In this document: positions 10,124-59,096 of the stretch, piece after piece
Position numbering within the stretch: the stretch's first letter is position 1
Layout: each line of letters starts with the position of its first letter
From: Escherichia phage F2
Direction: 5' to 3' (one strand)
Length of the DNA stretch: 64,000 nucleotides
Sequence record: NC_054913.1
Program-made: the position numbers and the translations under genes
Notes under the pieces: model-generated
What the model was told of the DNA's origin: nothing
Databases searched by the model: none
Seen by the model: the letters and a program-made list of their open reading frames with translations, nothing else

Positions 10124-10150
10124 GGAGACTTCGGTCTCCTTTCGGGGTTT
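10124..10150 (+). terminator. rho-independent terminator hairpin (UUCG loop) after gene 41
   Basis: ggagacttcggtctcc stem-loop followed by tttcggggttt. Confidence 0.5.
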
Positions 10151-10205
10151 ACATCTTCCTCTAGGCATGATATGATGTACTTACACAAACCAAGAGGAAA
10201 ACACT

Positions 10206-10580
10206 ATGAATATGTCTCAAGCAATTTTTACTGCAATCACCGAAAACACAACTGTTGAAGTAGCTTCTCCGCTGGCAACCTACGTTATTCTTGCTCCTAA
10301 AACCATTGTATCTCGTATGGAAAACATGGGCAAACGTATCGTACAAATTGTTGGAGCCGGAAATCAAAAACTTGATTATCTGCGAACCATCAAAGCTTAT
10401 GAACATTTCCAACTCGAAAAAGGTTCTCCTATCCAGGTAGAACTCGTAAATGGTGATATCGTTCGAGCAATGTTCCATCATTTCTATGCATTGAATGACC
10501 CATCTAAAGCGGTTCGTTTAATTGCATACGACGCAAACCAAAACGAAATCAACGCAGATGTATCTAAATTACGTTTTTAA
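10206..10580 (+). CDS. hypothetical protein
   Basis: 124 aa ORF with SD AGAGGA; no recognised motif. Confidence 0.5.
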   Translation: MNMSQAIFTAITENTTVEVASPLATYVILAPKTIVSRMENMGKRIVQIVGAGNQKLDYLRTIKAYEHFQLEKGSPIQVELVNGDIVRAMFHHFYALNDPSKAVRLIAYDANQNEINADVSKLRF

Positions 10581-10610
10581 GTTTACTTCTCCAGCAGTTG
10601 TGTTATTATA
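10581..10610 (+). promoter_or_regulatory. T4-type early promoter module (GTTTAC -35, TATTAT -10, conserved ctatcaa downstream)
   Basis: gtttac-N17-tattatagacctatcaa; member of repeated promoter family. Confidence 0.45.
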
Positions 10611-10635
10611 GACCTATCAACTACTGGAGAACAAA

Positions 10636-10953
10636 ATGAAAACCATTGATTGTAAAGCAGAATTTAAGATTTTTTATCACGGTTCAAGCAGTTCAGCTAA
10701 CATTGAAAACATGCTTTGTCCTCCTGAGGAAACAGGAGTTCTGTCTGAAACTGGACGTAAGAAAAACTTGGACCGTGTATTCTTTACCGAAGATATCGGT
10801 TTAGCAAAGATTTATGCAGGACGAGCAGCACGCTCTTATGGAGGTGAACCACGTCTCTATCGAGTAATTTCTCCGGTAGACGTAGTTCAAATGAATAATA
10901 CTAAAGGTGCTACAGTTTATCACGCTGAATGGGCATTTTGCGAGGAAATATGA
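10636..10953 (+). CDS. hypothetical protein
   Basis: 105 aa ORF following promoter module; stop overlaps dmd start. Confidence 0.5.
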   Translation: MKTIDCKAEFKIFYHGSSSSANIENMLCPPEETGVLSETGRKKNLDRVFFTEDIGLAKIYAGRAARSYGGEPRLYRVISPVDVVQMNNTKGATVYHAEWAFCEEI

Positions 10954-11141
10954 GCAAATTAACTAAAGTTACTTTTATTGGTTGGTTTAAAAGCGGTGAG
11001 ATGTTCACTAAAGATATCATGTTATCAGGTGATCGCGAAGAAATCGAGTGGGTTGCTGTACAACTTGCTGAAGTGAACAACGCATTAGTTAAAGCATTTG
11101 TTAATGACGAGAAAGTTTTTGAAGCTGATTTCAGAGGATAA
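10950..11141 (+). CDS. dmd: Dmd-like antitoxin (discriminator of mRNA degradation)
   Basis: MSKLTKVTFIGWFKSGEMFTKDIML...AEVNNALVKAFVNDEKVFEADFRG closely resembles remembered T4 Dmd (..VFMGWFKNESMFTKEI..AEVNKALVKAFIDDKKV..); located between 41 and 61 as in T4. Confidence 0.7.
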   Translation: MSKLTKVTFIGWFKSGEMFTKDIMLSGDREEIEWVAVQLAEVNNALVKAFVNDEKVFEADFRG

Positions 11142-11142
11142 T

Positions 11143-12097: not shown

Positions 12098-12127
12098 GTT
12101 TACATTATAGATGGACTATGGTATAGT
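12098..12127 (+). promoter_or_regulatory. T4-type early promoter module
   Basis: gtttac ... tatagtagtcctatcaa upstream of 12157. Confidence 0.45.
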
Positions 12128-12156
12128 AGTCCTATCAAATCAACTAAGGAGTTAAA

Positions 12157-15937: not shown

Positions 15938-15946
15938 ATAATTTAA

Positions 15947-15973
15947 GGAATCCTTCGGGATTCCTTTTTTGTT
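15947..15973 (+). terminator. rho-independent terminator after soc
   Basis: ggaatccttcgggattcc hairpin followed by tttttt. Confidence 0.7.
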
Positions 15974-15979
15974 TCTACA

Positions 15980-16010
15980 GTTTACAACCACTAAAAACTG
16001 TGTTAAGATA
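15980..16010 (+). promoter_or_regulatory. T4-type early promoter module
   Basis: gtttac then taagat about 19 nt downstream. Confidence 0.4.
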
Positions 16011-21470: not shown

Positions 21471-21500
21471 GTTTACAACCAAGGACGGTTGGAGTATAAT
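21471..21500 (+). promoter_or_regulatory. T4-type early promoter module
   Basis: gtttac-N18-tataat. Confidence 0.45.
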
Positions 21501-21531
21501 CTTTCTATCTTAACCAAACAGGAAAAACATT

Positions 21532-22026
21532 ATGAATATCAATACTACGGCTACTTACATCCTGAAAGACGAAAAACAAATCAACTGGTACGGTGCTTCA
21601 GTGCGAGCTTACGAAAAGTTTTGTGAAATTTTAGGTGCCACTCAAGGTAATAGTTTCACTATTGTTAACTTTATCAAACAAGCTGAAGGCCCTTGGTTAT
21701 TCTTAGAAATTAAAAATTCATACGGTACAATTTCTACTACCGCCATTCCAAGCACCGACTTTGAACTGTTGATTGAAGAAGCACCTGTTAAAGATGGTCT
21801 CCACTTTGATATGGATATCGCTTGTATGTACGGTACTCTGATTAAGCCTATTGAGCCTACTGATTTGTTGTGTAAAGCTGTTTCAATTCGACGACCATTC
21901 GCTGGACCGGTAAGTGGCTGGGTAACTGACCAGTGGATTGAAGATGGGGTTGAACTTCTGAACGTTGTTCATGCCGGTGATTTTAGTGTGGTTCCACGTA
22001 GTGCTGTGGTTAATATCCTTAATTAA
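21532..22026 (+). CDS. hypothetical protein, paralog family member 1
   Basis: C-terminal block GWVTDQWIEDGVELLNVVHAGDFSVVP shared with the next two ORFs. Confidence 0.5.
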   Translation: MNINTTATYILKDEKQINWYGASVRAYEKFCEILGATQGNSFTIVNFIKQAEGPWLFLEIKNSYGTISTTAIPSTDFELLIEEAPVKDGLHFDMDIACMYGTLIKPIEPTDLLCKAVSIRRPFAGPVSGWVTDQWIEDGVELLNVVHAGDFSVVPRSAVVNILN

Positions 22027-22027
22027 T

Positions 22028-22058
22028 GTTGTACATCCAAGGATGGATGGAGTATAAT
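22028..22058 (+). promoter_or_regulatory. early promoter-like module (TTGTAC -35 variant, TATAAT -10)
   Basis: gttgtacatccaaggatggatggagtataat. Confidence 0.4.
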
Positions 22059-22088
22059 GAATTCAACTTAAACAAAGAGAGAAAAAAT

Positions 22089-22586
22089 ATGATTACTATT
22101 GGTGAAATCCTTCGTGTATCTCCTGCTTCTCGTTCTAAAGCTGCAGGTCGTCTGGTTGAAGTAGCAGGGCTTCGTACTAACGGCATGGGACGTGTTAAAG
22201 AAGTTAAAGTTCGAATCATGCCCAGTTTTGGCGGACAAGATGCCCAGTATGCTTACGTAAGTCCTAAATTCCTGGAAAAACATATACGAGTCCAATTTGC
22301 TTCAAGCGAAGAAGTTGCACCTGCACACTTTGCTTCAAGCGATATCGTTGAGCCTAATGTACAGTTCAAATGGGCCTTGTGTAAAGGCGTTGAATTTATA
22401 ACCGATAAAGAATTCGATTACATCGACGAATACGGTTATCCAAGCACAACCGATACCATGTGTGGCTTCATTAGTGACCAATGGGTAGAAGATGGCGAAA
22501 AGTTATACAATATCGTATTCTTAGGTGACTTCCGAGTTGTTAAAGAATCTGAAATCACTCGCTATGTGTCTCCTCGTAAAGCTTAA
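22089..22586 (+). CDS. hypothetical protein, paralog family member 2
   Basis: VSPASRSKAAGRLVEV... and GFISDQWVEDGEKLYNIVFLGDFRVV shared with neighbours. Confidence 0.5.
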   Translation: MITIGEILRVSPASRSKAAGRLVEVAGLRTNGMGRVKEVKVRIMPSFGGQDAQYAYVSPKFLEKHIRVQFASSEEVAPAHFASSDIVEPNVQFKWALCKGVEFITDKEFDYIDEYGYPSTTDTMCGFISDQWVEDGEKLYNIVFLGDFRVVKESEITRYVSPRKA

Positions 22587-23015: not shown

Positions 23016-23037
23016 AGTAGTTTACTTCTCCTCTAGA
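23009..23037 (+). promoter_or_regulatory. T4-type early promoter module
   Basis: gtttac-N17-tactatagacctatcaa. Confidence 0.45.
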
Positions 23038-23076
23038 TGTGTTACTATAGACCTATCAAAACAAGAGGAGAATATT

Positions 23077-23898: not shown

Positions 23899-24324
23899 AT
23901 GGCTTTTAAAGGTTTTGAAGTTGGTAAGAAATATCGTATTATCAAAGGACAGGAAGATAATTTCTTGAGAATTCTTAATACGACTGGTAAACGTCTTAAT
24001 ACTAATCTGCATACTACTTTATTGTCCAAAGATTTTATTGTAGAAGAGATGATTGGTTACGGTGTTTCGGTTATTGCCGTAGAAGCCGTAGGCGATTATG
24101 GCCGAACTATTCATAGTATGCAAGGTGATATTCTGCTTTATGGTGCAGAATTTAAATTCTTTGAAGAAGTTCCGGAACCAGATACAGCTGTCGATTTCAA
24201 AAAAGGCTCTGTAGAATTTGTTGATGGTTCGGTGATCGTATCAGGTGATGTGGTCATTACAGTTAAAAGTGAACAAGGGCGTTTGGCTGCAATTGATGCA
24301 CTTCAGAAAATTAAATTTAAATAA
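23899..24324 (+). CDS. hypothetical protein
   Basis: 141 aa ORF followed by terminator. Confidence 0.5.
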   Translation: MAFKGFEVGKKYRIIKGQEDNFLRILNTTGKRLNTNLHTTLLSKDFIVEEMIGYGVSVIAVEAVGDYGRTIHSMQGDILLYGAEFKFFEEVPEPDTAVDFKKGSVEFVDGSVIVSGDVVITVKSEQGRLAAIDALQKIKFK

Positions 24325-24346
24325 GGGCTTCGGCCCTTTTTGCTTT
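24323..24346 (+). terminator. rho-independent terminator
   Basis: aagggcttcggccctt + ttttgcttt. Confidence 0.7.
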
Positions 24347-24387
24347 AGATTTCGGATGATAGAATACCTTCATAACGAGGAGACAAC

Positions 24388-26205
24388 ATGATTAAAAATG
24401 AAATTAAGGTATTGTCAGATGTAGAACATATTAAGAAACGAAGTGGCATGTATATTGGTTCTTCGGCCAAAGAAGCCCACGAGCGTTTTTTGTTTGGTAA
24501 ATATCAACAAGTTGAATATGTTCCTGGTCTGGTTAAATTAATCGATGAGATTATTGACAACTCGGTTGATGAAGCTATTCGTACATCATTTAAGTTTGCA
24601 AATAAAATTGATGTGCAAATTAAAAATAATCAAGTCTCAGTAGAAGATAACGGACGTGGTATTCCTCAAGGTTTAGTTACCGACCAAACAGGTGAACAAA
24701 TTCCTGGGCCTGTAGCAGCCTGGACTATTCCAAAGGCCGGCGGTAACTTTGGTGATGACTCTGAACGTAAGACCGGTGGTATGAACGGCGTCGGGAGTAG
24801 TTTAACTAATATCTTCTCTACGTTGTTTACAGGCATCACGTCAGATGGCGAAAATGAAATCACTGTTAACTGTTCAAACGGAATGGAAAACAAATCATGG
24901 TCTTCTAAGAAATCTAAAGGTAAAGGCACTAAAGTAATCTTCACTCCCGATTTCTCTTCATTTGAAGAGCATAATTTATCTCAAATTTATTTAGATATTA
25001 CTTTAGACCGACTTCAAACATTGGCAGTCGTTTATCCTGATATCAAGTTCACATTTAATGGTAAAAAGGTTGATGGTAATTTTAAACGATTTGCTAAACA
25101 ATTTGGTGAAGATAACATCATTCAAGAAAATGATAAAGTCTCTATAGCATTCACAACATCACCAGACGGCTTCCGTCATTTAACTTATGTGAATAACATT
25201 CATACTAAAAATGGTGGTCATCATGTTGAATGTGTAATGGATGATATCTGCGAACATCTTTTGCCCGGCATTAAAAAGAAATATAAGGGTATTGAAGTCA
25301 CTAAAGCTCGTGTTAAAGAATGTCTCACAATGTTGATGTTTATTAGAGACATGAGCAACATGCGTTTTGATTCTCAGACTAAAGAACGTTTAACGTCAAC
25401 GTATGGTGATATTCGTAATCATATCCAATTAGATGCTAAGAAAATTGCTCAGGCACTTCTTAAAAATGAAGCTTTGATTATGCCTATTGTTGAAGCAGCA
25501 TTAGCTCGTAAATTGGCAGCAGAAAAGGCTGCAGAAACTAAAGCAGCTAAAAAGGCAACTAAAGCTAAGGTTCATAAGCATATTAAAGCTAACCAATGTG
25601 GTAAAGATGCGGATACGACATTGTTTTTAACAGAAGGTGATTCGGCAATTGGTTATCTCATTGATGTTCGTGACCGTGAACTACACGGCGGATTCCCATT
25701 ACGTGGTAAGGTGATGAATAGCTGGGGTATGTCATATGCTGATATGATGAAGAACAAAGAGCTCTTTGATATCTGTGCTATCACAGGTCTTATTCTTGGT
25801 GAAAAGGCAGAGAATACAAACTATCGTAATATTGCAATTATGACTGATGCCGATCATGATGGTCTTGGAAGTATTTATCCGGCTTTGCTTGCTTTCTTTA
25901 GTAATTGGCCTGAATTGTTTGAACAAGGACGTATTCGCTTTGTTAAAACGCCTGTAATTATTGCACAAATTGGCAAAACACAAAAATGGTTTTATACTGT
26001 AGCTGAGTATGAAGAAGCTAAAGATACACTTCCTAAGCATAGTATTCGATACATCAAGGGATTGGGCTCCCTTGAAAAGTCAGAATATCGTGAAATGATT
26101 CAGAACCCTGTGTACGACGTAGTTAAACTTCCTGAAAATTGGAAAGAACTCTTTGAAATGTTGTTGGGTGATGATTCAGAACTTCGTAAAGAATGGATGT
26201 CCTAA
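24388..26205 (+). CDS. 39: type II DNA topoisomerase large (ATPase) subunit, gp39 with gp60-equivalent C-terminus fused
   Basis: GHKL ATPase motifs (LIDEIIDNSVDEA, GxxGxG region) and Toprim region; 605 aa, about the sum of T4 gp39 + gp60. Confidence 0.9.
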   Translation: MIKNEIKVLSDVEHIKKRSGMYIGSSAKEAHERFLFGKYQQVEYVPGLVKLIDEIIDNSVDEAIRTSFKFANKIDVQIKNNQVSVEDNGRGIPQGLVTDQTGEQIPGPVAAWTIPKAGGNFGDDSERKTGGMNGVGSSLTNIFSTLFTGITSDGENEITVNCSNGMENKSWSSKKSKGKGTKVIFTPDFSSFEEHNLSQIYLDITLDRLQTLAVVYPDIKFTFNGKKVDGNFKRFAKQFGEDNIIQENDKVSIAFTTSPDGFRHLTYVNNIHTKNGGHHVECVMDDICEHLLPGIKKKYKGIEVTKARVKECLTMLMFIRDMSNMRFDSQTKERLTSTYGDIRNHIQLDAKKIAQALLKNEALIMPIVEAALARKLAAEKAAETKAAKKATKAKVHKHIKANQCGKDADTTLFLTEGDSAIGYLIDVRDRELHGGFPLRGKVMNSWGMSYADMMKNKELFDICAITGLILGEKAENTNYRNIAIMTDADHDGLGSIYPALLAFFSNWPELFEQGRIRFVKTPVIIAQIGKTQKWFYTVAEYEEAKDTLPKHSIRYIKGLGSLEKSEYREMIQNPVYDVVKLPENWKELFEMLLGDDSELRKEWMS

Positions 26206-26230
26206 GCTCCTTCGGGAGCTTCATTTTAAT
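26204..26230 (+). terminator. rho-independent terminator after gene 39
   Basis: aagctccttcgggagctt + cattttaatttt. Confidence 0.6.
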
Positions 26231-30816: not shown

Positions 30817-30840
30817 TGGGGACTTCGGTCCCCTTTTTTC
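30817..30840 (+). terminator. rho-independent terminator after rIIB
   Basis: ggggacttcggtcccc + ttttttc. Confidence 0.8.
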
Positions 30841-31646: not shown

Positions 31647-31676
31647 GTTTACAACTAAGTAGGACTATGATATAGT
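31647..31676 (+). promoter_or_regulatory. T4-type early promoter module
   Basis: gtttac ... tatagtagtcttatc. Confidence 0.45.
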
Positions 31677-38247: not shown

Positions 38248-38256
38248 AATACCTCC

Positions 38257-38808: not shown

Positions 38809-38815
38809 ATTTAGA

Positions 38816-38831
38816 AGGGGCCGAAGCCCCT
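38816..38831 (-). promoter_or_regulatory. mRNA hairpin between Shine-Dalgarno and AUG of gene 38
   Basis: On - strand: ...taaGGAGaggggcttcggccccttctaaatATG; the only SD-like GGAG is 22 nt from the ATG with a 6-bp GC stem/UUCG loop in between. Confidence 0.45.
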
Positions 38832-38835
38832 CTCC

Positions 38836-42450: not shown

Positions 42451-42458
42451 AAGTCCTC

Positions 42459-43124
42459 TTAATAATAGCCGAAATCTTGAACAGAATCTTTAATTACAAT
42501 CTGGTCGAAACGAGGAACATGATTAGCCTCGGATGCCGGATTCTGTGAGAAAAAGTTTGGTGCTGTTAAAGTACCGGTCATGGTATCGCCAGAACGCAAT
42601 ACACGGGAATTTGCGTTATCCGTAACAATATTTATTCGTCCATCAACATAATCTTTTCTTGTGAGATCATTTGCTGCAACTGGAGCGGTAACGTTAGAAC
42701 GGACGGGTCCATTTGCATAAATACCACCCTTATTGCTGATATCACCAGTACGAGTGTCAACAACAACAGTTCTACCTGCAGATCCTTGCGATGATTTAAA
42801 ACCAATGCCATACCATGAAACAATATCAATATTTGTTCTATCAAAAGTAGCAGCATCACCATTGCCAGGATAAATACCGCTTTGGTTTGTATTGTTTACA
42901 GCATATGGTACTTGAACACCAGCATTAAATGTTACCTTTGACGCAAAAGTACCACCATTAGCTTTAGAAACAAAATCGTTATCAGCTGCCTGTGGTTTAT
43001 TATATTCTGAATAGAGTTTAAACGTTTTATACAGGACGTCATCACCTGCTGGCATTAAAGGGAAATTACCTTGATGCCATATAACGGCACCGCCAGTTGT
43101 ACTACCAGCTTTTAAATCGGCCAT
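42459..43124 (-). CDS. 36: gp36 long tail fibre hinge subunit
   Basis: 221 aa, same size as T4 gp36, syntenic. Confidence 0.85.
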
Positions 43125-43149
43125 AGTTGTCTCCTTATATGTATACCAT

Positions 43150-43157
43150 ATTTATAC
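43150..43157 (-). promoter_or_regulatory. late promoter TATAAATA for genes 36-37-38-t
   Basis: Reverse complement of tatttata; followed by SD AAGGAGA and gene 36 ATG. Confidence 0.5.
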
Positions 43158-43182
43158 AAAAATGGGAGCCCGAAGGCTCCCT
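43158..43182 (-). terminator. terminator hairpin after gene 35 (- strand)
   Basis: - strand gggagccttcgggctccc followed by atttttg. Confidence 0.55.
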
Positions 43183-43186
43183 AAAT

Positions 43187-44314
43187 TTATTCTGACGCTT
43201 CTTTAAATTCTTGTCCAAATACCTTACCAGTATCAGTTGAAGATTGAGTAGGTAATGTCATTATGTCTGGGGCACTTAAAGATTCTGAAACATAATTTAC
43301 ACGAATACCGTTTATACCAAACTCGGCAGGTTTTGAAACGCTTCCATTACATGATACTTCAGTGAATATAACGTTTCTTAATCCACCTTGCCCGACTGGA
43401 GCTGTACGATAACAATAAATCGTGAACCCGTCAGCACCGGCAGGAATTTCTATGTAGTCTTCATATATCTTCCATTCACCTGCACCCCCATCAAAGTTTA
43501 TATCCTTAAATGAAATAGGTGAAGTAGAAGGAGATTTAAAGAACCGAATAGAAAGTCGTGTCGTCCCTTGTGCTAACAAATCAGCATCGGCCATTAGTTG
43601 GAATTTCATATAAAGGAAATCTCCAGCCTTCAATTTATACCCAGCGAGAGGTGTAATAAGGGACGTTGTAGGCATCCTTTTAATTTCATTATTAGTACCT
43701 CCAACAGCGGATAAAAATGTGTCTGTCGATTCGTACGTACGACTAGGGAAGCCGGTAGCACCAATATCATTAATCGTGTCGTACACAACATCAAGTGGTG
43801 TACTATAGTCGGTTGAAGTTTTCTTATTACTATACTTAATATGCTCTAGTGCTATAGCATTCTTACCAGAAATATAAAATGCCGAATAAGAAATGTCCAC
43901 TATATTTAAAACTTGTTGAGCTAATGGAATAGCAGAACTCCCAACTTTAGTAAACCAGGCAAGAACTTCTGGCGGAAAGTTTGTTTTAGCGTTAGTAACA
44001 AGAGCAAATATAAAATTAGAAGCGTATGTGTCCATGAAAGTAACAAATGCACTTGACGTGGCGTCGTTTTCAGTAGAGAAATTATATGACTTAGATTCAA
44101 CTACTGCACCTGTTGTAGGATTTATTACACGAACGTTTAATCCAACGGAAAAAACCTGGGACCCAAGTGGATTATCTTGGAACTTAATATAAGCAGGAGA
44201 TGTTGATAGCGGGCAAGAGCCCGCTATGCTTAATTTAAATCGTACTGAATTGCTTTCCGATAAAAATGGCGTTTGGACGTATCCTTGTCCAAACTTAGCC
44301 ATAAATTTTTCCAT
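43187..44314 (-). CDS. 35: gp35 long tail fibre hinge/connector
   Basis: 375 aa (T4 gp35 about 372), syntenic. Confidence 0.85.
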   Translation of the reverse strand: MEKFMAKFGQGYVQTPFLSESNSVRFKLSIAGSCPLSTSPAYIKFQDNPLGSQVFSVGLNVRVINPTTGAVVESKSYNFSTENDATSSAFVTFMDTYASNFIFALVTNAKTNFPPEVLAWFTKVGSSAIPLAQQVLNIVDISYSAFYISGKNAIALEHIKYSNKKTSTDYSTPLDVVYDTINDIGATGFPSRTYESTDTFLSAVGGTNNEIKRMPTTSLITPLAGYKLKAGDFLYMKFQLMADADLLAQGTTRLSIRFFKSPSTSPISFKDINFDGGAGEWKIYEDYIEIPAGADGFTIYCYRTAPVGQGGLRNVIFTEVSCNGSVSKPAEFGINGIRVNYVSESLSAPDIMTLPTQSSTDTGKVFGQEFKEASE

Positions 44315-44322
44315 AATACCTC

Positions 44323-47300
44323 TTATTCAATCCACTCGAATTTAACAGATTTATTCACAGGGTCTGGAATAATGCGAACATTACCAATCCTTAAGAAATC
44401 CCTTATTGTCAAGTTTCCGATTGTTGCATTATCAGAAGGTAAAGCGCCAATATCAGAAGGTTGAGGAGGGTTTCCACCATCAAATACCTGAACAAAACTC
44501 GACCAAGAATTTTTAGTTTTCTGCCATGTACGTGTCCAACGGGTTGTACGTGCTTCTGGAGTTGTTGGATAAGTAATCCAATCTTGGTAAAGCGAATCAA
44601 GTGTGTTACCAAACTGAGTCAGTGTACCAGGAGATTTAACTTCTTCGCCACGTTCTAAGTATGGAAGTCCAGTCACTTCATTAGTTTTTTCAACCATTTT
44701 AAAATAACCCGGGAACTGGTTATAAGTGGCTGAATCGTTAATATCGATTGACCAGAATCCGACTGTATCAGCAGTAGGAGCACGAGTGTATAAATCAGCA
44801 GTTTTAGAACCATGAGAACGAATTCTCGAGTTAACAGTTAAACCACCTGAATTTATAGTAGCACCTTTGGCAATGATTAAGCCTTCACCAATCGTTACTT
44901 GGCCGGATGCATTATTAATAGCTAAAGGACGTAATCCATTAAATCCGCCAGTCTGATCACCTGATGCAGTAAGCATAAAATAGGTATTAACAGCATCATT
45001 ACGAATAAAGAATCCGTAATCACCACTAATTGCTCTGAAAGCATTTGCAGACTTACTAATGAATTCGCCATTAGCAGTAACTGAACGACCGAATGTTGCA
45101 ACGCCATTCACATTCATCAAACCGGAAGCATTAATGTTTATTGGCATTACAGTACCATTAATGCTAAACGCTATATTCCCATCTTTATTACGTTGAGAAT
45201 AAAAATGATTAGACGTTTCATCACCAACTTCAAATACAGTAGAACGTGTTGTATCTGATCCGCCACCAAACTGATTTCCCCAAACTCTGATAGACATCGT
45301 CTGTGCTGGGTTGGTTCCAGTTTGAGGTCCTTTCTCAAAAATAAGACGAGTTGCCGTTCCAGTATTAGAAATAGTTAATGTACTATTTGCCGAAACTGAA
45401 CCACCAAACGTAGCAGTACTAGATGATACAAGAGGGGCACTCAGATTCGTTTGTTGGGTTAAGGTTAGTGAACCATTAACCGTCTGTGCAATGTCCCTAC
45501 GAATGAACTGAGATGAATCTAGACCATCTAATAAATTTGCGTCAGCAGCTTTTGCTTTTAATGGCAAGTAATTTGCTAATACACGGTTTAATTCATACGG
45601 TGATACTGCATAGCTATTTTTCTCGTATAGCTCTAAGTTTTGTGTAGAACCGACTGTATCATTACCAACGAATGTAATAGAACCGGATGAAGTTTTAACG
45701 AATCCGCGAATTGCTGTAGTAGCAGCCCATGTTGGTTCGTTCTGGACAATCCATTTTAAATTCTTAGGAGATACAGCAGTATTCGCTGACGTTCCTGTTA
45801 CAGTTTCAGCCTGAGTAGCAACCTTAATTACGCCTTCAGACGTTTCAGTGGACTTAGTCCCTAAAAGCTTTTTAGGAGTAATAAGAACATCATCTAAAGT
45901 TCCTGCATTAGATTCTGCCTGGGTCGCTACGCGAAGTGTACCACGTTGTGTTTCATTTGCTTTAGAAATATCAAGAGTATAATGGTTCCACAAGGTTCCT
46001 TCTTCAATAAGTCCGGAATCAGAATTAACACTGGTACGGTCAGAAGAATCAAAATGAGTTTTAATTTTCAGTGGAGTCGAGATACGAGTATCATCAGTTC
46101 CAGTATCAAATTCAACTTGCGTAGCAATTTCGGCTATGCCGGATAATCCTTCCGTAGCTTTCCTATCATTTAACGTCTTAGGCGTTACTGCACGTGTATA
46201 ATCAGTCCCAGCATTAGTTTCTGCTTGCGTAGCAATTTCAATTAAACCAATACGTCCATCAGTAGAAGTTTTCTTATGTAGTGTTTCAGGAGTTACTACA
46301 GCGTGAGAGTATCCAGACTGAGATTGACCAGCAATTACTTCACTATCAATAGCTAAAATTACTGCACCTTGTTGAGTATATGTTGCTTTATATTGGTCAA
46401 GGGCTTTAGGAGAAATAGTTAAATTATTTACAGTTTTATTATAAACGTTAGTGCCTGCGGCACCACGAGTTTCAGCAGGAGTAGCAGAAGTAGTCGATAC
46501 ATATTTAACTATACCCGATAGTGTTTCGGAACCCTGACGTGCCTGTAATTTCTTAGGCGTAATAATCGTTGTGTCATCAAGACCAGCATCGGTTTCAGCC
46601 TGAGTAGCAATTTCAGCAAGACCTCGACGAGTTTCAGTTGCTGTACGCTCATTTAGTTTTTTAGGCGTAACAATAGTATCGTCCACAAATGATGCTGTGG
46701 AATTCTGGTTAACTTGTGCTGTTGTAGCAATTTTAGCGATACCACGTCGAGCTTCAGTTGCTGTACGATTTGCCAACGTTTCAGGAGTAATAGCAACTTC
46801 TTTAGCTGGAGTATTCTCTAAATCAACATTTGCTTGCGCTTGAGTAGCAAGAGCAATAACACCTAAACGAGCTCGTGTAGCATCAGTTCCAGCATCAACA
46901 CGTTCTATCGTAGGGACATTCTGTTGCACAACCCAATAACGTGTACCAGCAACGGTGTCTTCGATATACGATAATTCTAATACAGGAACATATGAAGTAG
47001 TGCCATTGAATTCTAGTTCAGTAACAGAGACCCATTGAGCATCAGGTGGATATTCAGAACGTTTAGGGAACTGAAGCAACGCAACAGAAGAAGCAATTGT
47101 ATCACCTTCGGCAGCTTTAATTTTTACTGTTTGGCCTTTACGCATGTAGTTCATTGAAATTTTAACAGTGTCACCACTCAAAATTCCGGTAGGCAGCGTA
47201 AGATTAATAGTTCCGGTTGCAGCGTTATTTGTGCCAAAAATAAGAACTTCTTCATTTGGACGAATATTTGAATCCGCACGGATAATACGAAGACGCGATT

Positions 47301-48198
47301 TCTGGTCGCCTTCCCATATACGCCATAAACTATTCGCAGCATCAAAAACAAAAAACGCGTCAGAGTCATTTCTGCCTTCGGCAATATGAGTCCCGACTTC
47401 ACCAATAGACGTTGTATCATCAAATGTTTTAACAATTGTATGATACAACGGGTTTAATTTATCTAAATCGACTAGGCTGATTATATCACCATTGTTAGCA
47501 TTACGTGGAAGTGTAATGTTGATTGGTGCTGCACTAGTAAAACGACGAACGATAAAATCATTTGCTTGTGCTTGATATGGTGCCGCAGGTGTAACAGTGA
47601 TTGATTCTTTACCGTAATCAATGATATACATCTGCCACAAACGATTACTAAACACAAACACTAGTTGTGAACGTGGTCGCGTCATTAAAACTGAACGAAC
47701 TTGTTCACCTCTAAAGTTTAAAATACTCTGCACAGACGCGTTAATCTGTACTTTAACTGTCCCGGTTCTTCCACCAATATCAGCCAAAACAACAGTATCA
47801 CCATCAACCGGCGCATTTGGCAACGTGAAAACCATATCATTGCCGGCGCCAGTGTTAACCGAAATCGATTCGCCTGAAGAAAGTTGATAAGTCCCAGAAG
47901 CGACAGTTATCCATTGTGCATCGGTACGAACTGCACGCCATTGTAAAAGGTTAAATGCCCCGGAAGGAGACACGATATCATTTATTGCTTGATATAAACG
48001 GTTGTCATAAAGAACAACAAATCCTTTGTTATATCCACGCGTAGAATCATATACTTGAACGGTGTTTTCTTGTACCAGGAAGTCAACGTTTACGCCATCA
48101 GTACCTACTGTACGGTCGGCTAATGCTACGTTAACAATCTTGTCGCCACCGGCGTCCAGACCGTCTTCGGCTCTGAACTTACGTTTGATGTCGGCCAT
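44323..48198 (-). CDS. 34: gp34 long tail fibre proximal subunit
   Basis: 1291 aa (T4 gp34 about 1289); N-terminus MADIKRKFRAEDGLDAGGDKIVNVALADR. Confidence 0.9.
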   Translation of the reverse strand: MADIKRKFRAEDGLDAGGDKIVNVALADRTVGTDGVNVDFLVQENTVQVYDSTRGYNKGFVVLYDNRLYQAINDIVSPSGAFNLLQWRAVRTDAQWITVASGTYQLSSGESISVNTGAGNDMVFTLPNAPVDGDTVVLADIGGRTGTVKVQINASVQSILNFRGEQVRSVLMTRPRSQLVFVFSNRLWQMYIIDYGKESITVTPAAPYQAQANDFIVRRFTSAAPINITLPRNANNGDIISLVDLDKLNPLYHTIVKTFDDTTSIGEVGTHIAEGRNDSDAFFVFDAANSLWRIWEGDQKSRLRIIRADSNIRPNEEVLIFGTNNAATGTINLTLPTGILSGDTVKISMNYMRKGQTVKIKAAEGDTIASSVALLQFPKRSEYPPDAQWVSVTELEFNGTTSYVPVLELSYIEDTVAGTRYWVVQQNVPTIERVDAGTDATRARLGVIALATQAQANVDLENTPAKEVAITPETLANRTATEARRGIAKIATTAQVNQNSTASFVDDTIVTPKKLNERTATETRRGLAEIATQAETDAGLDDTTIITPKKLQARQGSETLSGIVKYVSTTSATPAETRGAAGTNVYNKTVNNLTISPKALDQYKATYTQQGAVILAIDSEVIAGQSQSGYSHAVVTPETLHKKTSTDGRIGLIEIATQAETNAGTDYTRAVTPKTLNDRKATEGLSGIAEIATQVEFDTGTDDTRISTPLKIKTHFDSSDRTSVNSDSGLIEEGTLWNHYTLDISKANETQRGTLRVATQAESNAGTLDDVLITPKKLLGTKSTETSEGVIKVATQAETVTGTSANTAVSPKNLKWIVQNEPTWAATTAIRGFVKTSSGSITFVGNDTVGSTQNLELYEKNSYAVSPYELNRVLANYLPLKAKAADANLLDGLDSSQFIRRDIAQTVNGSLTLTQQTNLSAPLVSSSTATFGGSVSANSTLTISNTGTATRLIFEKGPQTGTNPAQTMSIRVWGNQFGGGSDTTRSTVFEVGDETSNHFYSQRNKDGNIAFSINGTVMPININASGLMNVNGVATFGRSVTANGEFISKSANAFRAISGDYGFFIRNDAVNTYFMLTASGDQTGGFNGLRPLAINNASGQVTIGEGLIIAKGATINSGGLTVNSRIRSHGSKTADLYTRAPTADTVGFWSIDINDSATYNQFPGYFKMVEKTNEVTGLPYLERGEEVKSPGTLTQFGNTLDSLYQDWITYPTTPEARTTRWTRTWQKTKNSWSSFVQVFDGGNPPQPSDIGALPSDNATIGNLTIRDFLRIGNVRIIPDPVNKSVKFEWIE

Positions 48199-51481: not shown

Positions 51482-51504
51482 GGGAGACTTCGGTCTCCCT
51501 TTTG
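51482..51504 (+). terminator. rho-independent terminator after gene 32
   Basis: gggagacttcggtctccc + tttt. Confidence 0.75.
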
Positions 51505-51533: not shown

Positions 51534-51562
51534 GTTTACTTCTTCCCTAGATGTGATATTAT
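51534..51562 (+). promoter_or_regulatory. T4-type early promoter module
   Basis: gtttac-N17-tattatagttctatcaa. Confidence 0.45.
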
Positions 51563-51984: not shown

Positions 51985-52013
51985 TTTATAACAAGATAGG
52001 GCTATGTTATAGT
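51984..52013 (+). promoter_or_regulatory. early promoter-like module (GTTTAT, TATAGT)
   Basis: gtttat ... tatagtagccctatcaa. Confidence 0.4.
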
Positions 52014-52045
52014 AGCCCTATCAAATAAAAGTGAAGGAGAATAAA

Positions 52046-52288
52046 ATGAGATTGCAACGCCAGAGCATCAAAGATTCTGAAGTTAGAGGTAAATGGTACT
52101 TCAACATCGTCGGTAAAGACGCTGAACTTGTTGAAAAAGCTGAACATCTTTTACGCGATATGGGTTGGGAAGATGAATGCGATGGATGTCCACTCTATGA
52201 AGATGGTGAAAGTGCAGGATTCTGGATTTACCACTCTGACATTGAATCGTTTAAAGCTGATTGGAAAATTGTGAAAAAGTCTGTTTGA
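52046..52288 (+). CDS. hypothetical protein
   Basis: SD AAGGAGA before ATG at 52046. Confidence 0.45.
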   Translation: MRLQRQSIKDSEVRGKWYFNIVGKDAELVEKAEHLLRDMGWEDECDGCPLYEDGESAGFWIYHSDIESFKADWKIVKKSV

Positions 52289-52299
52289 GGAAAAATAAT

Positions 52300-52542
52300 A
52301 TGATTTTTGTATTTGAATTTATGAATGACGAATTCGATTATGCAATTTTTAACGCATTGCATAATCCCGATTTAAGTGAATTTAATGAAATGTTTTCTGA
52401 CGCTTTGAGTATGTCAGAAGAATACTGCGGAGAATGTCAACGTGTTTGTGTGACAGTTTTTGAAAACAAAGAAAAGACATATGAAGAGTTATTCTTTGAC
52501 GCTAATAAAGCCACTGAATGGTTTATTGAAAAGGGGTTTTGA
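52300..52542 (+). CDS. hypothetical protein
   Basis: SD GAGGA before ATG. Confidence 0.45.
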   Translation: MIFVFEFMNDEFDYAIFNALHNPDLSEFNEMFSDALSMSEEYCGECQRVCVTVFENKEKTYEELFFDANKATEWFIEKGF

Positions 52543-53500
<958 letters not shown>

Positions 53501-53513
53501 TTATAGGTGCTAA

Positions 53514-54717: not shown

Positions 54718-56142
54718 ATGCAAGTAACTAAGAGCAGTGGGGTATCCCAAAATTTTGATGCACAGAAAATTATTCAAGTCTTAACTTGGCAATGTGAAGG
54801 AACACAAATTGACCCATATGAATTGTACGAAGAAATTAAGACCCATCTTGTTGACGGGATGAGCACCAAAGATATCCAGAAGATTTGTATTAAAGTTGCA
54901 GCTAACTCGATTTCTGTCGAAGAACCTGATTATCAGTATGTCGCCGCCAAAGGGCTAATGTTTGCACTTCGTAAAGATGTGTATGGGCAGTTTGAACCGC
55001 CTGCTTTTATCGACCATATTTCTTACTGTGTTAATGAAGGCAAATATGACCCTGAGCTGTTGTCTCAATATTCAGCAGAAGAAATCATTTATCTCGATTC
55101 ACAGATTAAACATGAACGAGACTTTGACCTGACTTATGCTGGTGCTATGCAGCTTAAAGAAAAATATCTAGTTAAAGATAAAACAACTGGAAAGATTTAT
55201 GAAACTCCTCAGTTTGCTATCATGGCTATTGGTATGGCCTTACACCAAGACGAAACCCATGACCGTTTGAAACATATTATTCGTTTTTATGATGCCGTTT
55301 CTACTCATCAAGTTTCATTGCCAACCCCAATTATGGCGGGTGCTCGTACTCCAACTCGCCAGTTCTCTAGTTGTGTAGTTATTGAAGCAGGTGATTCGTT
55401 AAAATCTATTAACAAAACTTCAGCATCAATTATTGAATATATTTCTAAACGAGCTGGTATCGGTATCAACGTTGGTATGCTTCGTGCAGAAGGTTCTAAG
55501 ATCGGTATGGGCGAAGTTCGACATACGGGTGTTATTCCGTTCTGGAAACATTTCCAAACTGCAGTAAAATCTTGTTCTCAAGGTGGTATTCGTGGTGGTG
55601 CTGCTACAGCGTATTATCCGATGTGGCACTTAGAAGTAGAGAACCTATTAGTTCTGAAAAATAACAAAGGCGTGGATGAAAACCGTATTCGACATATGGA
55701 CTACGGAATTCAGATTAATGACCTTATGATGGAACGCCTTGGTAAAAATGATTATATTACTTTATTTAGCCCTCACGAAATGTCAGGCGAACTATACTAC
55801 TCATTCTTTGAAGATCAAGATAAATTCCGTGAGCTTTATGAGAAAGCTGAAAAAGACCCGACAATCAGAAAGAAAAGAATCAAAGCACTAGAACTCTTTG
55901 AATTGTTCATGACTGAACGTTCTGGTACTGCTCGAATTTATCCTCAGTTCGTTGATAACACTAACAACTTCACACCATTTATTCGTGAAAAAGCTCCAAT
56001 TCGTCAGAGTAACTTATGTTGTGAAATCGCTATTCCAACTAATGATGTGAATAGTCAACAAACCCGTTTAATTAAAATTAAGAAGTCGGATGTAGCTAAG
56101 TTTTATGAAGCTAATCCTGGCGGTATAATTCAAAGCAAATAA
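54718..56142 (+). CDS. nrdA: ribonucleotide reductase large subunit, N-terminal piece (NrdA-a)
   Basis: Class Ia NrdA N-terminal and catalytic region ending with active-site SNLCCEIAIPT then 29 non-conserved residues and stop. Confidence 0.85.
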   Translation: MQVTKSSGVSQNFDAQKIIQVLTWQCEGTQIDPYELYEEIKTHLVDGMSTKDIQKICIKVAANSISVEEPDYQYVAAKGLMFALRKDVYGQFEPPAFIDHISYCVNEGKYDPELLSQYSAEEIIYLDSQIKHERDFDLTYAGAMQLKEKYLVKDKTTGKIYETPQFAIMAIGMALHQDETHDRLKHIIRFYDAVSTHQVSLPTPIMAGARTPTRQFSSCVVIEAGDSLKSINKTSASIIEYISKRAGIGINVGMLRAEGSKIGMGEVRHTGVIPFWKHFQTAVKSCSQGGIRGGAATAYYPMWHLEVENLLVLKNNKGVDENRIRHMDYGIQINDLMMERLGKNDYITLFSPHEMSGELYYSFFEDQDKFRELYEKAEKDPTIRKKRIKALELFELFMTERSGTARIYPQFVDNTNNFTPFIREKAPIRQSNLCCEIAIPTNDVNSQQTRLIKIKKSDVAKFYEANPGGIIQSK

Positions 56143-56187
56143 AGTACACAGACCGTTAATAAATAATCCATAACAAGAGGAAAAGTT

Positions 56188-56898
56188 ATGGATTATTCTA
56201 AAATTTACAATAACCTTATTTCTAAAGCTAAGAACAGAAAATTAGATTGCTATACCGAATCACATCATATTATACCTCTGTGTATTGGTGGTTCTGATAC
56301 AAAGGAAAACCTGGTAGATTTGACACCAGAAGAGCATTACATAGCTCATCAATTATTAGTAAAGATATATCCAGATAATCATAAATTGATATTTGCCGCT
56401 AATATGATGTGTGTTTATTCTGAAGATAATATTGAACGAAAGAACACCAATAAACGACATGGGTGGCTTAGAAGAAAATTGGCTATTTCTGTATCTGAAA
56501 ATAATAAAGGCAAACCGGCCTGGAACAAAGGTATTCCTATGTCTCCAGAAGTTAAATCTCGACTTCAAACAACTTGGGTATTTACTTTCCCGGACGGTCA
56601 TGAAGAAATCCATAAAGGCCTAAGAGAATTTTGCGAACTACATTCACTCAATGCTTCGGCAATGTCGGCCGTATGCAAAGGCAAAAGGTCTCAACATAAA
56701 GGCTTTAAGTGTCGAAAGCTTGATAATATCTCTGAAAACGATAATCAAGAATACGTCAGTAAACCTCATCCAAAGGGATTAAAACCTCATAACTTAATTG
56801 CTGTAAAAATAAACGGTATAGAATATCAATCAATACATCGAGCATCTAAAGCTTTAGGAATTACTAGAAAAAAGGTAGAAGAATTAAATGAATATTGA
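56188..56898 (+). CDS. HNH homing endonuclease (MobE-like) interrupting nrdA
   Basis: HNH motif ESHHIIPLCIGGSDTKENLVDLTPEEHYIAH; own SD AAGAGGAA; lies between the two nrdA pieces. Confidence 0.8.
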   Translation: MDYSKIYNNLISKAKNRKLDCYTESHHIIPLCIGGSDTKENLVDLTPEEHYIAHQLLVKIYPDNHKLIFAANMMCVYSEDNIERKNTNKRHGWLRRKLAISVSENNKGKPAWNKGIPMSPEVKSRLQTTWVFTFPDGHEEIHKGLREFCELHSLNASAMSAVCKGKRSQHKGFKCRKLDNISENDNQEYVSKPHPKGLKPHNLIAVKINGIEYQSIHRASKALGITRKKVEELNEY

Positions 56899-57877
56899 TT
56901 ATGAATTTGTAGATGAATTTTACGAAGATGATGAGTATACAACAATACAAGTTATTGAAAACAGGGGAGAAGTGGGGCTTTGTACCCTTAGCGCATTTGT
57001 GTTAGATAACTTCGATTGGCAAGACCAAGATAAAATTAATGAACTTGCTGAAGTACAAGTACGTGCACTTGATAACCTGTTAGACTATCAAGATTATCCG
57101 GTTCCAGAAGCTTTAAAAGCTAAAAAGCGTCGTAATCTGGGTGTTGGTGTTACGAACTATGCAGCTTGGTTAGCAAGCAACTTTGCTTCTTATGAAGACG
57201 CAAACGATTTAACTCATGAACTGTTTGAGAGATTACAATATGGGCTTATCCGAGCATCAATCAAGTTGGCCGAAGAAAAAGGACCTTGCGAGTATTATTC
57301 AGACACTAAATGGTCTCGAGGCGAATTACCTATCGACTGGTACAATAAAAAGATTGACCAAATCGCAGCTCCAAACTACGTTTGTGACTGGGAAGAACTT
57401 CGAGCTGAACTCAAAGAACATGGAATTCGTAACTCAACGTTGTCTGCACTCATGCCTTGTGAGTCAAGCAGTCAAGTATCGAACTCTACAAATGGGATTG
57501 AGCCCCCACGTGGTCCAGTAAGTATTAAAGAATCTAAAGAAGGCAACTTCCGTCAGGTTGTTCCTAATATCGAACATAACGTGGGTCTTTATGACTACGC
57601 GTGGAAACTTGCTAAGAAAGGTAATAAACCTTATTTGACCCAAGTTGCTATCATGTTGAAATGGGTGTGCCAATCTGCTTCTGCTAATACTTACTATGAC
57701 CCTGCGGTATTTGAGAAAGGTAAAGTGCCAATGTCGGTAATGCTTGACGATCTGCTTTACTTCTGGTACTTTGGTGGAAAAAACCTCTACTATCATAACA
57801 CTCGTGATGGGTCAGGTACAGATGACTATGAATTAGAAACACCTAAAGCTGAAGATTGTTCTGCTTGTAAGCTTTAA
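56888..57877 (+). CDS. nrdA: ribonucleotide reductase large subunit, C-terminal piece (NrdA-b)
   Basis: Continues conserved NrdA sequence (GEVGLCTLSAF...NSTLSALMPCESSSQVSNSTNGIEPP...) to the C-terminal Cys pair; start overlaps HNH gene end. Confidence 0.85.
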   Translation: MNIDYEFVDEFYEDDEYTTIQVIENRGEVGLCTLSAFVLDNFDWQDQDKINELAEVQVRALDNLLDYQDYPVPEALKAKKRRNLGVGVTNYAAWLASNFASYEDANDLTHELFERLQYGLIRASIKLAEEKGPCEYYSDTKWSRGELPIDWYNKKIDQIAAPNYVCDWEELRAELKEHGIRNSTLSALMPCESSSQVSNSTNGIEPPRGPVSIKESKEGNFRQVVPNIEHNVGLYDYAWKLAKKGNKPYLTQVAIMLKWVCQSASANTYYDPAVFEKGKVPMSVMLDDLLYFWYFGGKNLYYHNTRDGSGTDDYELETPKAEDCSACKL

Positions 57878-57930
57878 GACTTTTGATTATAATTTACTCA
57901 TGGATGAGTTAAACTAAGTGAGAAAATATA

Positions 57931-59070
57931 ATGAGTACAGTTTTTAACACACGACAAGTCGATGTTTTGAATGAACCGATGTTCTTTGGTTCTGGTCTTG
58001 GTATTGCGCGTTATGATATTCAACGCCATAAAGTTTTTGAAGATTTGACCGAAAAGCAATTATCGTTTTTTTGGCGCCCAGAAGAGGTAAACTTGATGTT
58101 GGACTCTGCGCAGTTCAATAAGCTTCCTCAGTTCCAACAGGACATCTTTACAAACAATCTTAAGTATCAATCATTATTAGATTCTATCCAAGGCAGGGCC
58201 CCATCTGCGGTACTTATGGCACTGATTTCCGACCCTTCATTAGATACGTGGGTTGCAACATGGACATTCAGTGAAACTATTCACTCTCGTTCGTATACTC
58301 ATATTATGCGAAATCTTTATACGGATCCATCTAAGGTATTTGATGAAATTGTATTAGACGAAGCAATCATGAAACGAGCTGGATCAATAGGTAAATATTA
58401 CGATGATGTTCTAGTCAAGACTCGCCTTTACCGGAATGCTTTAGAAGAATATCACGAGTTTAGCGAAGGCGTAAAACAGGCTAAATACGAACTAATGCGT
58501 TCTCTTTACCTCTGTCTGCACGTAATCAACGCTCTGGAAGCTATTCGTTTTTACGTATCATTTGCATGTACTTTCAACTTCCATAAAAATATGGAAATTA
58601 TGGAAGGTAATGCAAAGATTATGAAGTTCATTGCTCGTGACGAACAACTCCACCTCAAGGGTACTCAGTACATTATCCGTCAACTTCAATCTGGTACTGA
58701 TGGTGATGAGTGGGTTCAAATTGCTAAAGAATGTGAACAAGAAGCAGTTGACATTTTTATGGAAGTAAATAGACAAGAGAAGGAATGGGCTGCACACCTC
58801 TTTAAAGACGGTACATGCCCAGGTATCAATACGCAGAGTATGTGTGCTTTTGTTGATTACTTGACTGTGTCTCGTATGAAACAGTGTGGTTTGCCATGCC
58901 CAATCACTGATGCTCCGACCAAGCATCCGTATCCTTGGATTCGTGAATATCTGAACTCTGATTTAGTTCAAGCAGCTCCTCAGGAAGTTGAAATCAGTTC
59001 TTATCTTGTCGCACAAATTGATAATGATGTAGACCAAAATGTAATCAATTCATACAAAAAATATTTCTAA
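57931..59070 (+). CDS. nrdB: ribonucleotide reductase small subunit (uninterrupted)
   Basis: 379 aa; di-iron/tyrosyl radical protein motifs; syntenic. Confidence 0.9.
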   Translation: MSTVFNTRQVDVLNEPMFFGSGLGIARYDIQRHKVFEDLTEKQLSFFWRPEEVNLMLDSAQFNKLPQFQQDIFTNNLKYQSLLDSIQGRAPSAVLMALISDPSLDTWVATWTFSETIHSRSYTHIMRNLYTDPSKVFDEIVLDEAIMKRAGSIGKYYDDVLVKTRLYRNALEEYHEFSEGVKQAKYELMRSLYLCLHVINALEAIRFYVSFACTFNFHKNMEIMEGNAKIMKFIARDEQLHLKGTQYIIRQLQSGTDGDEWVQIAKECEQEAVDIFMEVNRQEKEWAAHLFKDGTCPGINTQSMCAFVDYLTVSRMKQCGLPCPITDAPTKHPYPWIREYLNSDLVQAAPQEVEISSYLVAQIDNDVDQNVINSYKKYF

Positions 59071-59074
59071 GGAC

Positions 59075-59096
59075 GGGACTTCGGTCCCACTTTATT
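59075..59096 (+). terminator. terminator-like hairpin after nrdB
   Basis: gggacttcggtccc + actttatt. Confidence 0.5.

Follow-up and report, generated by a model that had tools for sequence, protein, structure and literature searches.

UUCG-capped RNA hairpins in a 64,000-nucleotide stretch of the genome of Escherichia phage F2

The UUCG tetraloop closed by a C-G pair was discovered in T4 mRNA in 1988 and is presented in PMC4371310 as extraordinarily stable. Hairpins of the form (X)2-8CUUCGG(Y)2-8 are, in the account of PMC8948821 that cites Tuerk et al. (1988), frequent in phages and most of all in T4, lie mainly between genes and vary in function, and the same account counts transcript stabilization among their published functions. 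Hairpins of this type were analyzed here in a stretch of 64,000 nucleotides from Escherichia phage F2 (NC_054913.1; the whole stretch is called the window, and positions are counted from its first letter), for which an earlier note made from the letters alone had listed ten such structures of a single design, eight plus-strand terminators and two minus-strand hairpins. Twelve are present. They are the CUUCGG hairpins of T4-type phages (Tuerk et al. 1988, PNAS 85:1364) and as such are already known; the UUCG hairpins of the T-even phages are the textbook case from which the concept of the extra-stable tetraloop arose, and have little value as a discovery. The reading strongly favored by the analysis is that one structural design, a short G/C-rich stem under a C(UUCG)G cap, serves several RNA-level jobs in the window.

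Two other systems described in T4-type phages are closely related to these elements. In T4 gene 38, an RNA structure between the Shine-Dalgarno sequence (SD) and the AUG cuts a 22-nt spacing to 5, and mutations that destabilize the stem lower the translation of T4 genes 38 and 25 (PMC3014915); such split ribosome-binding sites (RBSs) were reported by Nivinskas et al. (1999) and Malys and Nivinskas (2009), as covered in the review PMC3014915. PeSL cassettes consist of a stem-loop adjoining or overlapping an early promoter (TTTACW-N17-TAYWAT), followed by an SD and a start codon, and their stem-loops are effective terminators just 5' of the early promoters (PMC2839356, PMC4122927). One PeSL stem-loop, from a related phage pair, lowered reporter expression in the manner of a strong terminator (PMC2839356). 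A Mot-box variant, PmSL, has also been described, and the cassettes have been tied to indels (Arbiol et al. 2010, PMC2839356; Comeau et al. 2014, PMC4122927). The stability of the loop, the gene 38 mechanism and the activity of PeSL stem-loops are taken here from this literature.

The window hairpins share with those of T4 the hexamer cap, the complementary flanks (2-8 there, 5-9 here) and a mostly intergenic location, and they occupy orthologous positions at soc, 39.1/39, uvsX/40, 35/36, rIIB and gene 38; unlike T4, the window has UUCG at gene 32 and gene 52, where T4 has other loops, and at gene 41, where T4 has no hairpin. A stem-loop with an early promoter at four sites and, at 24323, the Mot-box variant are shared with the PeSL/PmSL cassettes, and an indel lies beside 10121; the hairpins at gene 38, denA, gene 40, gene 52.1, rIIB and gene 39 lie outside promoter cassettes. 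The UUCG loop is not mentioned in the PeSL/PmSL papers, and PMC2839356 contains none of the terms "UUCG", "TTCG" and "tetraloop". Intrinsic terminators of E. coli and its phages have the same G/C hairpin and U-rich tract just past a stop codon as six of the window sites, but the remaining six hairpins have no adequate U-tract or stand where termination would be counter-productive. As regards the split RBSs of T4, the minus-strand hairpin at 38816 is the gene 38 element itself, and the hairpin at 59075 before denA, known here from its sequence alone, shares the order SD, stable hairpin, short spacer and AUG.

Number, folding and orientation of the hairpins

Sequences, folds, positions, orientation, enrichment and conservation of the hairpins were computed. 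Gene names were lifted over from the annotation of the closest match in a phage collection searched with megablast, Escherichia phage vB_VIPECOMC06 (PQ416618.1, ~97% identical). All ten sites of the earlier note hold a C-G-closed TTCG hairpin on the strand it had given, with coordinates agreeing within 1-2 nt, and their stems are perfect Watson-Crick helices of 5-9 bp. The common design therein proposed is thus borne out, while the literal 16-mer offered as its pattern, ggNNNcttcggNNNcc, fits five of the ten; the other five differ in stem length or composition, as with AAGCTCC at 26204 and GGGAC at 59075 under the same C(UUCG)G cap. Two plus-strand C(UUCG)G hairpins outside that list, 8367-8386 in gene 40 and 33159-33172 in gene 52.1, bring the total to 12 (Table 1). 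Every one of the 12 agrees with the Tuerk-type definition (CUUCGG flanked by 2-8 complementary bases per side), having 5-9 perfect pairs including the closing C-G, and every one has the G/C-rich RNA hairpin expected of an intrinsic terminator. Tuerk-type hairpins are further marked by exceptional thermal stability of the RNA and by their blocking of reverse transcriptase. Two minus-strand TTCG hairpins in gene 34 (44370 and 44814) are A/T-closed, without the C-G closing pair, and were treated as chance occurrences. Comparison of the whole window with 4227 Rfam families at gathering thresholds gave no match, group I introns included, and the hairpins stand outside every curated RNA family.

Table 1. 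Coordinates of the C(UUCG)G hairpins and of other features of the window (SD, Shine-Dalgarno sequence; d, terminator discriminant)
Feature	Coordinates	Strand	Location	Tail, spacer or following element	d
Hairpin in gene 40, TCCCCTTC[TTCG]GAAGGGGA	8367-8386	+	34 nt past uvsX stop; gene 40 codons ~15-21		
Hairpin past gene 41	10121-10142	+	2 nt past gene 41 stop	weak U-tract UUUCGGGG	-17
Hairpin past soc homologue	15945-15966	+	7 nt past soc-homologue stop	UUUUUUGUUU; early promoter 15981-16009	+28
Hairpin before gene 39	24323-24338	+	overlaps stop codon of open reading frame upstream of gene 39		+11
Hairpin past gene 39	26204-26221	+	overlaps gene 39 stop codon	interrupted U-tail UUCAUUUUAAUUUU	-14
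Hairpin past rIIB	30818-30833	+	5 nt past rIIB stop	UUUUUUCUUU; canonical terminator anatomy	+39
Hairpin in gene 52.1	33159-33172	+	21 nt past ac-homologue stop; gene 52.1 codons ~8-12	UUGUUGUUGCUU	-9
Hairpin past gene 52	34683-34700	+	75 nt past gene 52 stop	UUUUGUGCAUUUUU	+16
Hairpin before gene 38	38816-38831	-	between GGAG SD 38832-38835 and gene 38 AUG 38806-38808	spacer UCUAAAU	
Hairpin past gene 35 (context z-score -4.0)	43164-43181	-	5 nt past gene 35 stop	AUUUUUGU	+5
Hairpin past gene 32	51482-51499	+	6 nt past gene 32 stop	UUUUGAGU; early promoter 51535-51562	+8
Hairpin before denA	59075-59088	+	between AAGGA SD 59069-59073 and denA AUG 59097-59099		-43
Inverted repeats centered on -10 boxes	12110-12136, 31659-31684, 32171-32198, 51995-52022, 32434-32457, 62109-62130; also 10590-10628, 23030-23068				
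Early/middle genes		+	end of 43, 42, uvsX, 40, 41, 61, soc, motB, 39, rIIA, rIIB, denB, ndd, 52, motA, asiA		
Late genes	37588-48198	-	t, 38, 37, 36, 35, 34		
Genes beyond the late block		+	rnh, 33, 59, 32, frd, td, nrdA, nrdB, denA, rnlA, pseT		

The minimum free energy fold of the 44-52 nt context contains the hairpin at all 12 sites, with context z-scores of -1.1 to -4.0; the hairpins taken by themselves have predicted energies of -7.5 to -14.1 kcal/mol. The hexamer CTTCGG is found only about twofold above Markov expectation on the plus strand and roughly at expectation on the minus strand, as it would be if the hairpins had arisen by chance from composition or codon usage. The shuffled sequences argue otherwise: ggNNNcttcggNNNcc has five matches in the window against 0.00 in shuffles, and TTCG-capped stems of at least 5 bp number 14, where 200 dinucleotide-preserving shuffles average 0.58 and never exceed 4. 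The runner-up tetraloop on such stems occurs four times, and of the 31 tetraloop hairpins that have a perfect stem and three or more G-C pairs, 12 carry TTCG. CTTCGG hexamers also number 31, and all 10 intergenic sense copies fold (-9.0 to -15.6 kcal/mol in 26-nt contexts), as do 2 sense copies within open reading frames (ORFs); at the other 19 (16 antisense in ORFs, 2 sense in ORFs and 1 intergenic antisense) no UUCG-capped hairpin was found. The copies that form hairpins are exactly sense, mostly intergenic ones. This distribution and the shuffles together refute chance, the probability of which is negligible.

With respect to the local genes the 12 C-G-closed hairpins are oriented 12:0 in the sense direction, and 10 of them are intergenic. 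A DNA palindrome is indifferent to which strand reads TTCG and which CGAA, so this bias argues for an RNA-level feature; being read from the sense strand, the hairpin should fold rapidly in the nascent mRNA. Elements acting as DNA, whether recombination-linker palindromes (the role proposed for PeSL), protein-binding sites or a mobile repeat family, were considered. Four sites lie in stem-loop and early-promoter cassettes of the kind proposed for modular shuffling, the cassette at 10121-10176 lies beside a segment (10204-10625) that is an indel in the comparison with the nearest relative, and GGAGACTTCGGTCTCC is present twice, at 10124 and 51483. Palindromes of this kind are nevertheless rejected by the strand bias, and a mobile repeat family by flanks that are not shared, flanking homology of the mobile-repeat type being absent. 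The stems moreover have only the design in common, not a sequence, and from phage to phage they covary around a loop that is kept. A DNA-level origin is accordingly rated improbable, and any role in recombination would add to the RNA function.

Two observations on the stems themselves were made. The repeated 16-mer is identical at the gene 41 hairpin (10124-10139) and the gene 32 hairpin (51483-51498), where its flanks are unrelated. In 5 of the 12 stems there is a GGAG, a motif that the RegB nuclease of T4 cleaves in its single-stranded form.

Terminator-like sites and promoter cassettes

Sites were sorted by their distance to the flanking genes, by a U-tract score (T-score) together with a terminator discriminant (d), by promoter scans and by reading of the downstream sequence. 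The formula of the discriminant follows d'Aubenton Carafa et al. (1990) and was run with modern energy parameters. A generic terminator scan, with 16-26 candidates per 20 kb where shuffled sequence gave 11-13, was too unspecific for ranking; an intergenic hairpin scan combined with the U-tract score was therefore used. UUCG tetraloops are said to have been found over-represented in E. coli terminators by d'Aubenton Carafa et al. in 1990. The literature search turned up neither a usable study of T4 3' ends, by Term-seq or other means, nor usable figures on how often E. coli terminators carry UUCG.

An intrinsic terminator calls for a U-rich tract of about 7-9 nt directly 3' of the stem, and the U-tract score split the 12 hairpins into six positive and six negative sites. 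The positive sites (15945, 24323, 30818, 34683, 51482 and the minus-strand 43164) have T-scores of 2.5-5.1, compared with a 95th percentile of 2.3 in the window background; the U-tract is weak at 10121, 26204, 33159 and 38816(-), and is lacking at 8367 and 59075. To judge from these features the six are very probably intrinsic terminators or attenuators for E. coli RNA polymerase, and the hairpin that terminates or attenuates transcription there would also protect the 3' end it releases. The label of terminator given in the earlier note suits about half of the sites, the six with a U-tail 0-75 nt past a stop codon. Among the eight plus-strand sites so labeled, five are terminator-like, while the U-tract is poor at 10124 and 26204 and all but missing at 59075. 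Both minus-strand hairpins do share the design, as had been stated; 43165 is terminator-like and 38816 is the gene 38 leader hairpin. The proposal that the motif serves as a signature of transcript-unit boundaries holds insofar as it marks many cistron or transcript boundaries, with the term terminator appropriate to about half of them.

Most terminator-like sites are coupled to promoters. The anatomy at 15945 is that of a canonical intrinsic terminator. At 24323 the U-tail enters a MotA box, TGCTTTA (24341-24347; middle-promoter consensus from PMC2988021), and TAGAAT (24360-24365) follows 12 nt further on; this site is very probably a terminator joined to a MotA-dependent middle promoter. The motA early promoter (TTTACT-16-TATTAT, 34727-34754) lies 3' of the 34683 hairpin, and the hairpin at 51482 is, from its sequence and setting, very probably the gene 32 terminator. 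On the minus strand, the 43164 hairpin is followed by a late promoter, TATAAATA (43149-43156), and then by gene 36. No promoter was identified between the 30818 hairpin and the next gene. Terminators would thus be paired with early promoters at 15945, 34683 and 51482, with a MotA middle promoter at 24323 and with a late promoter at 43164(-).

The definition of PeSL/PmSL cassettes applies to 10121, 15945, 34683 and 51482 (early type) and to 24323 (Mot-box type), and not to the other seven hairpins. At 10121 an early promoter (TTTACA-17-TATGAT, 10148-10176) stands directly 3' of the hairpin, and this PeSL-type cassette (10121-10176) adjoins a segment of ~0.4 kb that is absent from the closest relative (10204-10625). 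The alignment to PQ416618 breaks at 10203/10626, a second promoter is located at 10582-10609, and the other cassettes lie in collinear sequence. The segment holds an ORF (10206-10580, no Pfam match) between the early promoters at 10148-10176 and 10582-10609, which is the pattern expected for a PeSL-bounded cassette. At 26204 the next ORF begins 26 nt 3' of the hairpin with its own AAGG SD, and a weak terminator or 3' stabilizer is the likely function. The sites with weak U-tracts at 10121, 26204 and 33159 are more likely to act as leaky attenuators or as barriers to 3'-exonucleases.

Inverted repeats of 7-11 bp were also observed centered on the -10 box of early promoters (Table 1), with loops such as GGTATA, GTTATA and GAGTATAA. 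They fit the description in PMC2839356 of PeSL stem-loops that overlap the -10 box, and T4 has one past gene 41.

Hairpins at ribosome-binding sites and in coding sequence

The minus-strand hairpin at 38816 is the split-RBS element of gene 38 known from T4, and not a terminator. Its SD and AUG are 23 nt apart, or 7 nt with the hairpin folded out, and the same arrangement was seen in T4 and two contigs. The hairpin would loop out the SD-AUG interval to leave a workable spacing, as established in T4, and the one at 59075 before denA would probably do likewise. A split-RBS layout, taken as an SD-AUG gap of more than ~15 nt that is filled by a hairpin, with no other SD, was found at gene 38 and denA. 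At the nrdB-denA junction the TAA stop codon (59068-59070) overlaps AAGGA and is followed by one base, the hairpin, the 8-nt spacer ACUUUAUU and the AUG. The SD is 23 nt from the AUG, a distance that falls to 9 nt once the hairpin is looped out. No alternative SD is present in the 8-nt spacer of the window. With no space for a promoter at the junction, the transcripts that serve denA must run through the hairpin.

The layout TAA-GGA(G), hairpin, 6-9 nt, AUG recurs in 21 of 22 distinct nrdB-denA junctions from ~29 related contigs. The stems vary (GGGAC, AAGGGC, GGGGC, GGGCC, AGGGCC), and 17 of the 22 have a UUCG loop, T4-type sequences have GCAA or GUAA and one has a pentaloop; the spacers are U-rich throughout their range of 6-9 nt and carry no purine-rich motif. 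Only one contig lacks the hairpin; in its place the stop and start codons overlap as ATGA, which suggests that the hairpin layout may be an alternative means of coupling the translation of denA to that of nrdB. From this comparison the mechanism at denA is taken to be probably a split RBS like that of gene 38, which may also serve as an attenuator; the U-rich spacer makes a terminator or attenuator role at 59075 possible too. No description of this hairpin and SD arrangement at denA was found in the literature, and the treatment of split RBSs in PMC3014915 names only genes 38 and 25.

The denA start of the T4 RefSeq record (NC_000866, position 137951) is a GTG located inside the junction hairpin, right beside GGAG. 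An ATG 24 nt past this GTG is the denA start kept in all relatives, and the corresponding extension in the window has no start codon. On this sequence comparison the RefSeq start is probably mis-set.

Two hairpins lie within genes. That at 8367 in gene 40 has an energy of -17.3 kcal/mol in context, a T-score of 0.08 and no U-tract. It encodes ESPSSEGE in both T4 and the window, and the two sequences differ there by CCT/CCC and GAA/GAG, which are synonymous and leave one stem pair complementary. A G/C-rich hairpin at gene 40 codons ~14-22, 34-58 nt past the uvsX stop, was found in all enterobacterial T4-like contigs examined, despite gp40 peptides as different as EEGPSDPR, APLEEGEF, EAPKGAS and AEGAKAPS; the loops vary and there is no U-tract. 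Retention of the hairpin across divergent peptides, together with paired synonymous changes, points to selection at the RNA level. The element would then be a conserved RNA structure, and the best guess at its function is a protective 3'-end hairpin of uvsX transcripts. The hairpin at 33159 extends to 11 bp at 33153-33178, with -16.5 kcal/mol in context. It lies in gene 52.1, a small membrane-protein gene just 5' of gene 52, and T4 has a different hairpin in the same position. An attenuator upstream of gene 52, embedded in coding sequence, is a possible interpretation.

That the denA junction is a third split RBS and that the gene 40 hairpin (perhaps also that in gene 52.1) is under RNA-level selection, none of which was found described, is advanced as a tentative combined proposal with a somewhat less than even chance of being right. 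It would be a modest addition to what is known of translational control in T4-type phages.

These sites bear on the view that every hairpin is a Rho-independent terminator and the motif a signature of transcript-unit boundaries. The view is in keeping with the position of 10 of the 12 hairpins (intergenic, sense and 0-75 nt from a stop codon), with the good U-tracts and downstream promoter or gene start at six sites, and with the reporter reduction by a PeSL stem-loop, similar to that by a strong terminator (PMC2839356). It does not accommodate 38816(-), which stands between the SD and AUG of gene 38 and whose T4 equivalent enhances translation; nor 59075, placed 8 nt from the denA AUG with no promoter room, where efficient termination would silence denA; nor 8367, inside gene 40 and without a U-tract. 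Sites 10121 and 26204 score negative, and several UUCG hairpins downstream of rIIB in relatives abut an SD and have no U-tract. As a general account it is very improbable, more so than a DNA-level origin. For annotation of Mosigvirus and Tequatrovirus genomes, a sense CTTCGG with complementary G/C-rich arms reliably flags an RNA element at a cistron boundary; its automatic annotation as a terminator is unwise, because what the hairpin does depends on its U-tract and on how far away the next start codon lies.

Conservation in relatives and genome setting

In T4, the hairpin at the soc site is orthologous to 15945, with one compensatory pair change, a UUCG hairpin at 39.1/39 occupies the same place as 24323, and the gene 38 leader hairpin is almost identical to that of the window. 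A C(UUCG)G hairpin also stands at the start of T4 gene 40, with imperfect ones at 35/36 and past rIIB. The T4 orthologue of 34683 at gene 52 carries a CGAG loop, and no hairpin equivalent to 10121 is present past T4 gene 41.

A tetraloop hairpin stands a few nucleotides past the gene 32 stop codon in most T4-like contigs (39-93% gp32 identity); the loops are mostly UUCG, otherwise UCCG, UACG, UUUG or GAAA, and the stems are of unrelated sequence. In an alignment of 22 gene 32 sequences with the loops in register, 96.5% of cells were paired and 8 of 9 pairs changed on both sides. For the comparisons at gene 32 and denA, only loop identity and position are unbiased by stem selection. A UUCG or UCCG hairpin follows rIIB in 12 of 15 distinct related loci, on four different stems. 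At 43164(-) a compensatory change of C-G to A-U was found in a close relative. The scans of related gp35 and gp38 loci covered two loci each, and the comparative support for 43164 and 38816 consists of T4 plus one or two contigs.

A function mainly in mRNA stability or processing, in which the hairpins would block 3'-to-5' exonucleases after endonucleolytic cuts and termination would be incidental, draws support from retention of the UUCG cap in relatives that lack U-tracts and within coding sequence. The loop is thermodynamically stable, transcript stabilization is among the functions listed in PMC8948821, and T4 early transcripts undergo extensive processing and decay control (PMC3014915). 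The six sites with U-tracts above background (2.5-5.1 against 2.3) just 5' of promoters argue against it, these being features needed by terminators and not by stabilizers. As the main explanation it is unlikely, although it has better standing than the other alternatives; it is also compatible with the favored reading of one design with several jobs, because a terminator hairpin stabilizes the 3' end that it creates.

Several points weigh against that favored reading. Termination at each site is deduced from anatomy alone, and the zero threshold of the discriminant is approximate, the formula having been combined with modern energies. Context z-scores are modest in some cases (-1.1 to -2). 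The loops of the T4 gene 32 and gene 52 terminators are not UUCG, and 9 of the 12 UUCG or UCCG hairpins downstream of rIIB lead straight into an SD without a U-tract, from which it follows that the cap is neither necessary nor sufficient for a terminator; the rIIB pattern equally indicates that elements unable to act as canonical terminators still retain the cap. Lastly, the covariation and pairing figures for gene 32 and denA are partly circular, because the best stem was picked at each locus.

On sequence identity the window is assigned to an RB69-like T-even phage genome of the genus Mosigvirus: it is 95-98% identical to Mosigvirus phages over most of its length, and its gene order is T4-type (Table 1). 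Four segments (10204-10625, 21500-22350, 52278-53511 and 62139-62635) have no alignment to PQ416618. Gene 39 is a single 605-aa ORF (24388-26205), without the 39/60 split of T4. The translational-bypass hairpin of T4 gene 60 is itself a C(UUCG)G hairpin (2837-2854 in T4) and has no counterpart in the window, gene 39 being unsplit.

The nrdA gene (54718-57877) is in two pieces of 474 aa and 329 aa, which join at position ~220 of the barrel domain. Rfam indicated no group I intron at this site. The pieces are separated by a 236-aa ORF (56188-56898) with a NUMOD domain of the I-HmuI type, that is, a homing-endonuclease insertion. The split arrangement occurs in 33 phage records, and the annotated records among the best matches listed name a homing endonuclease between two nrdA ORFs.

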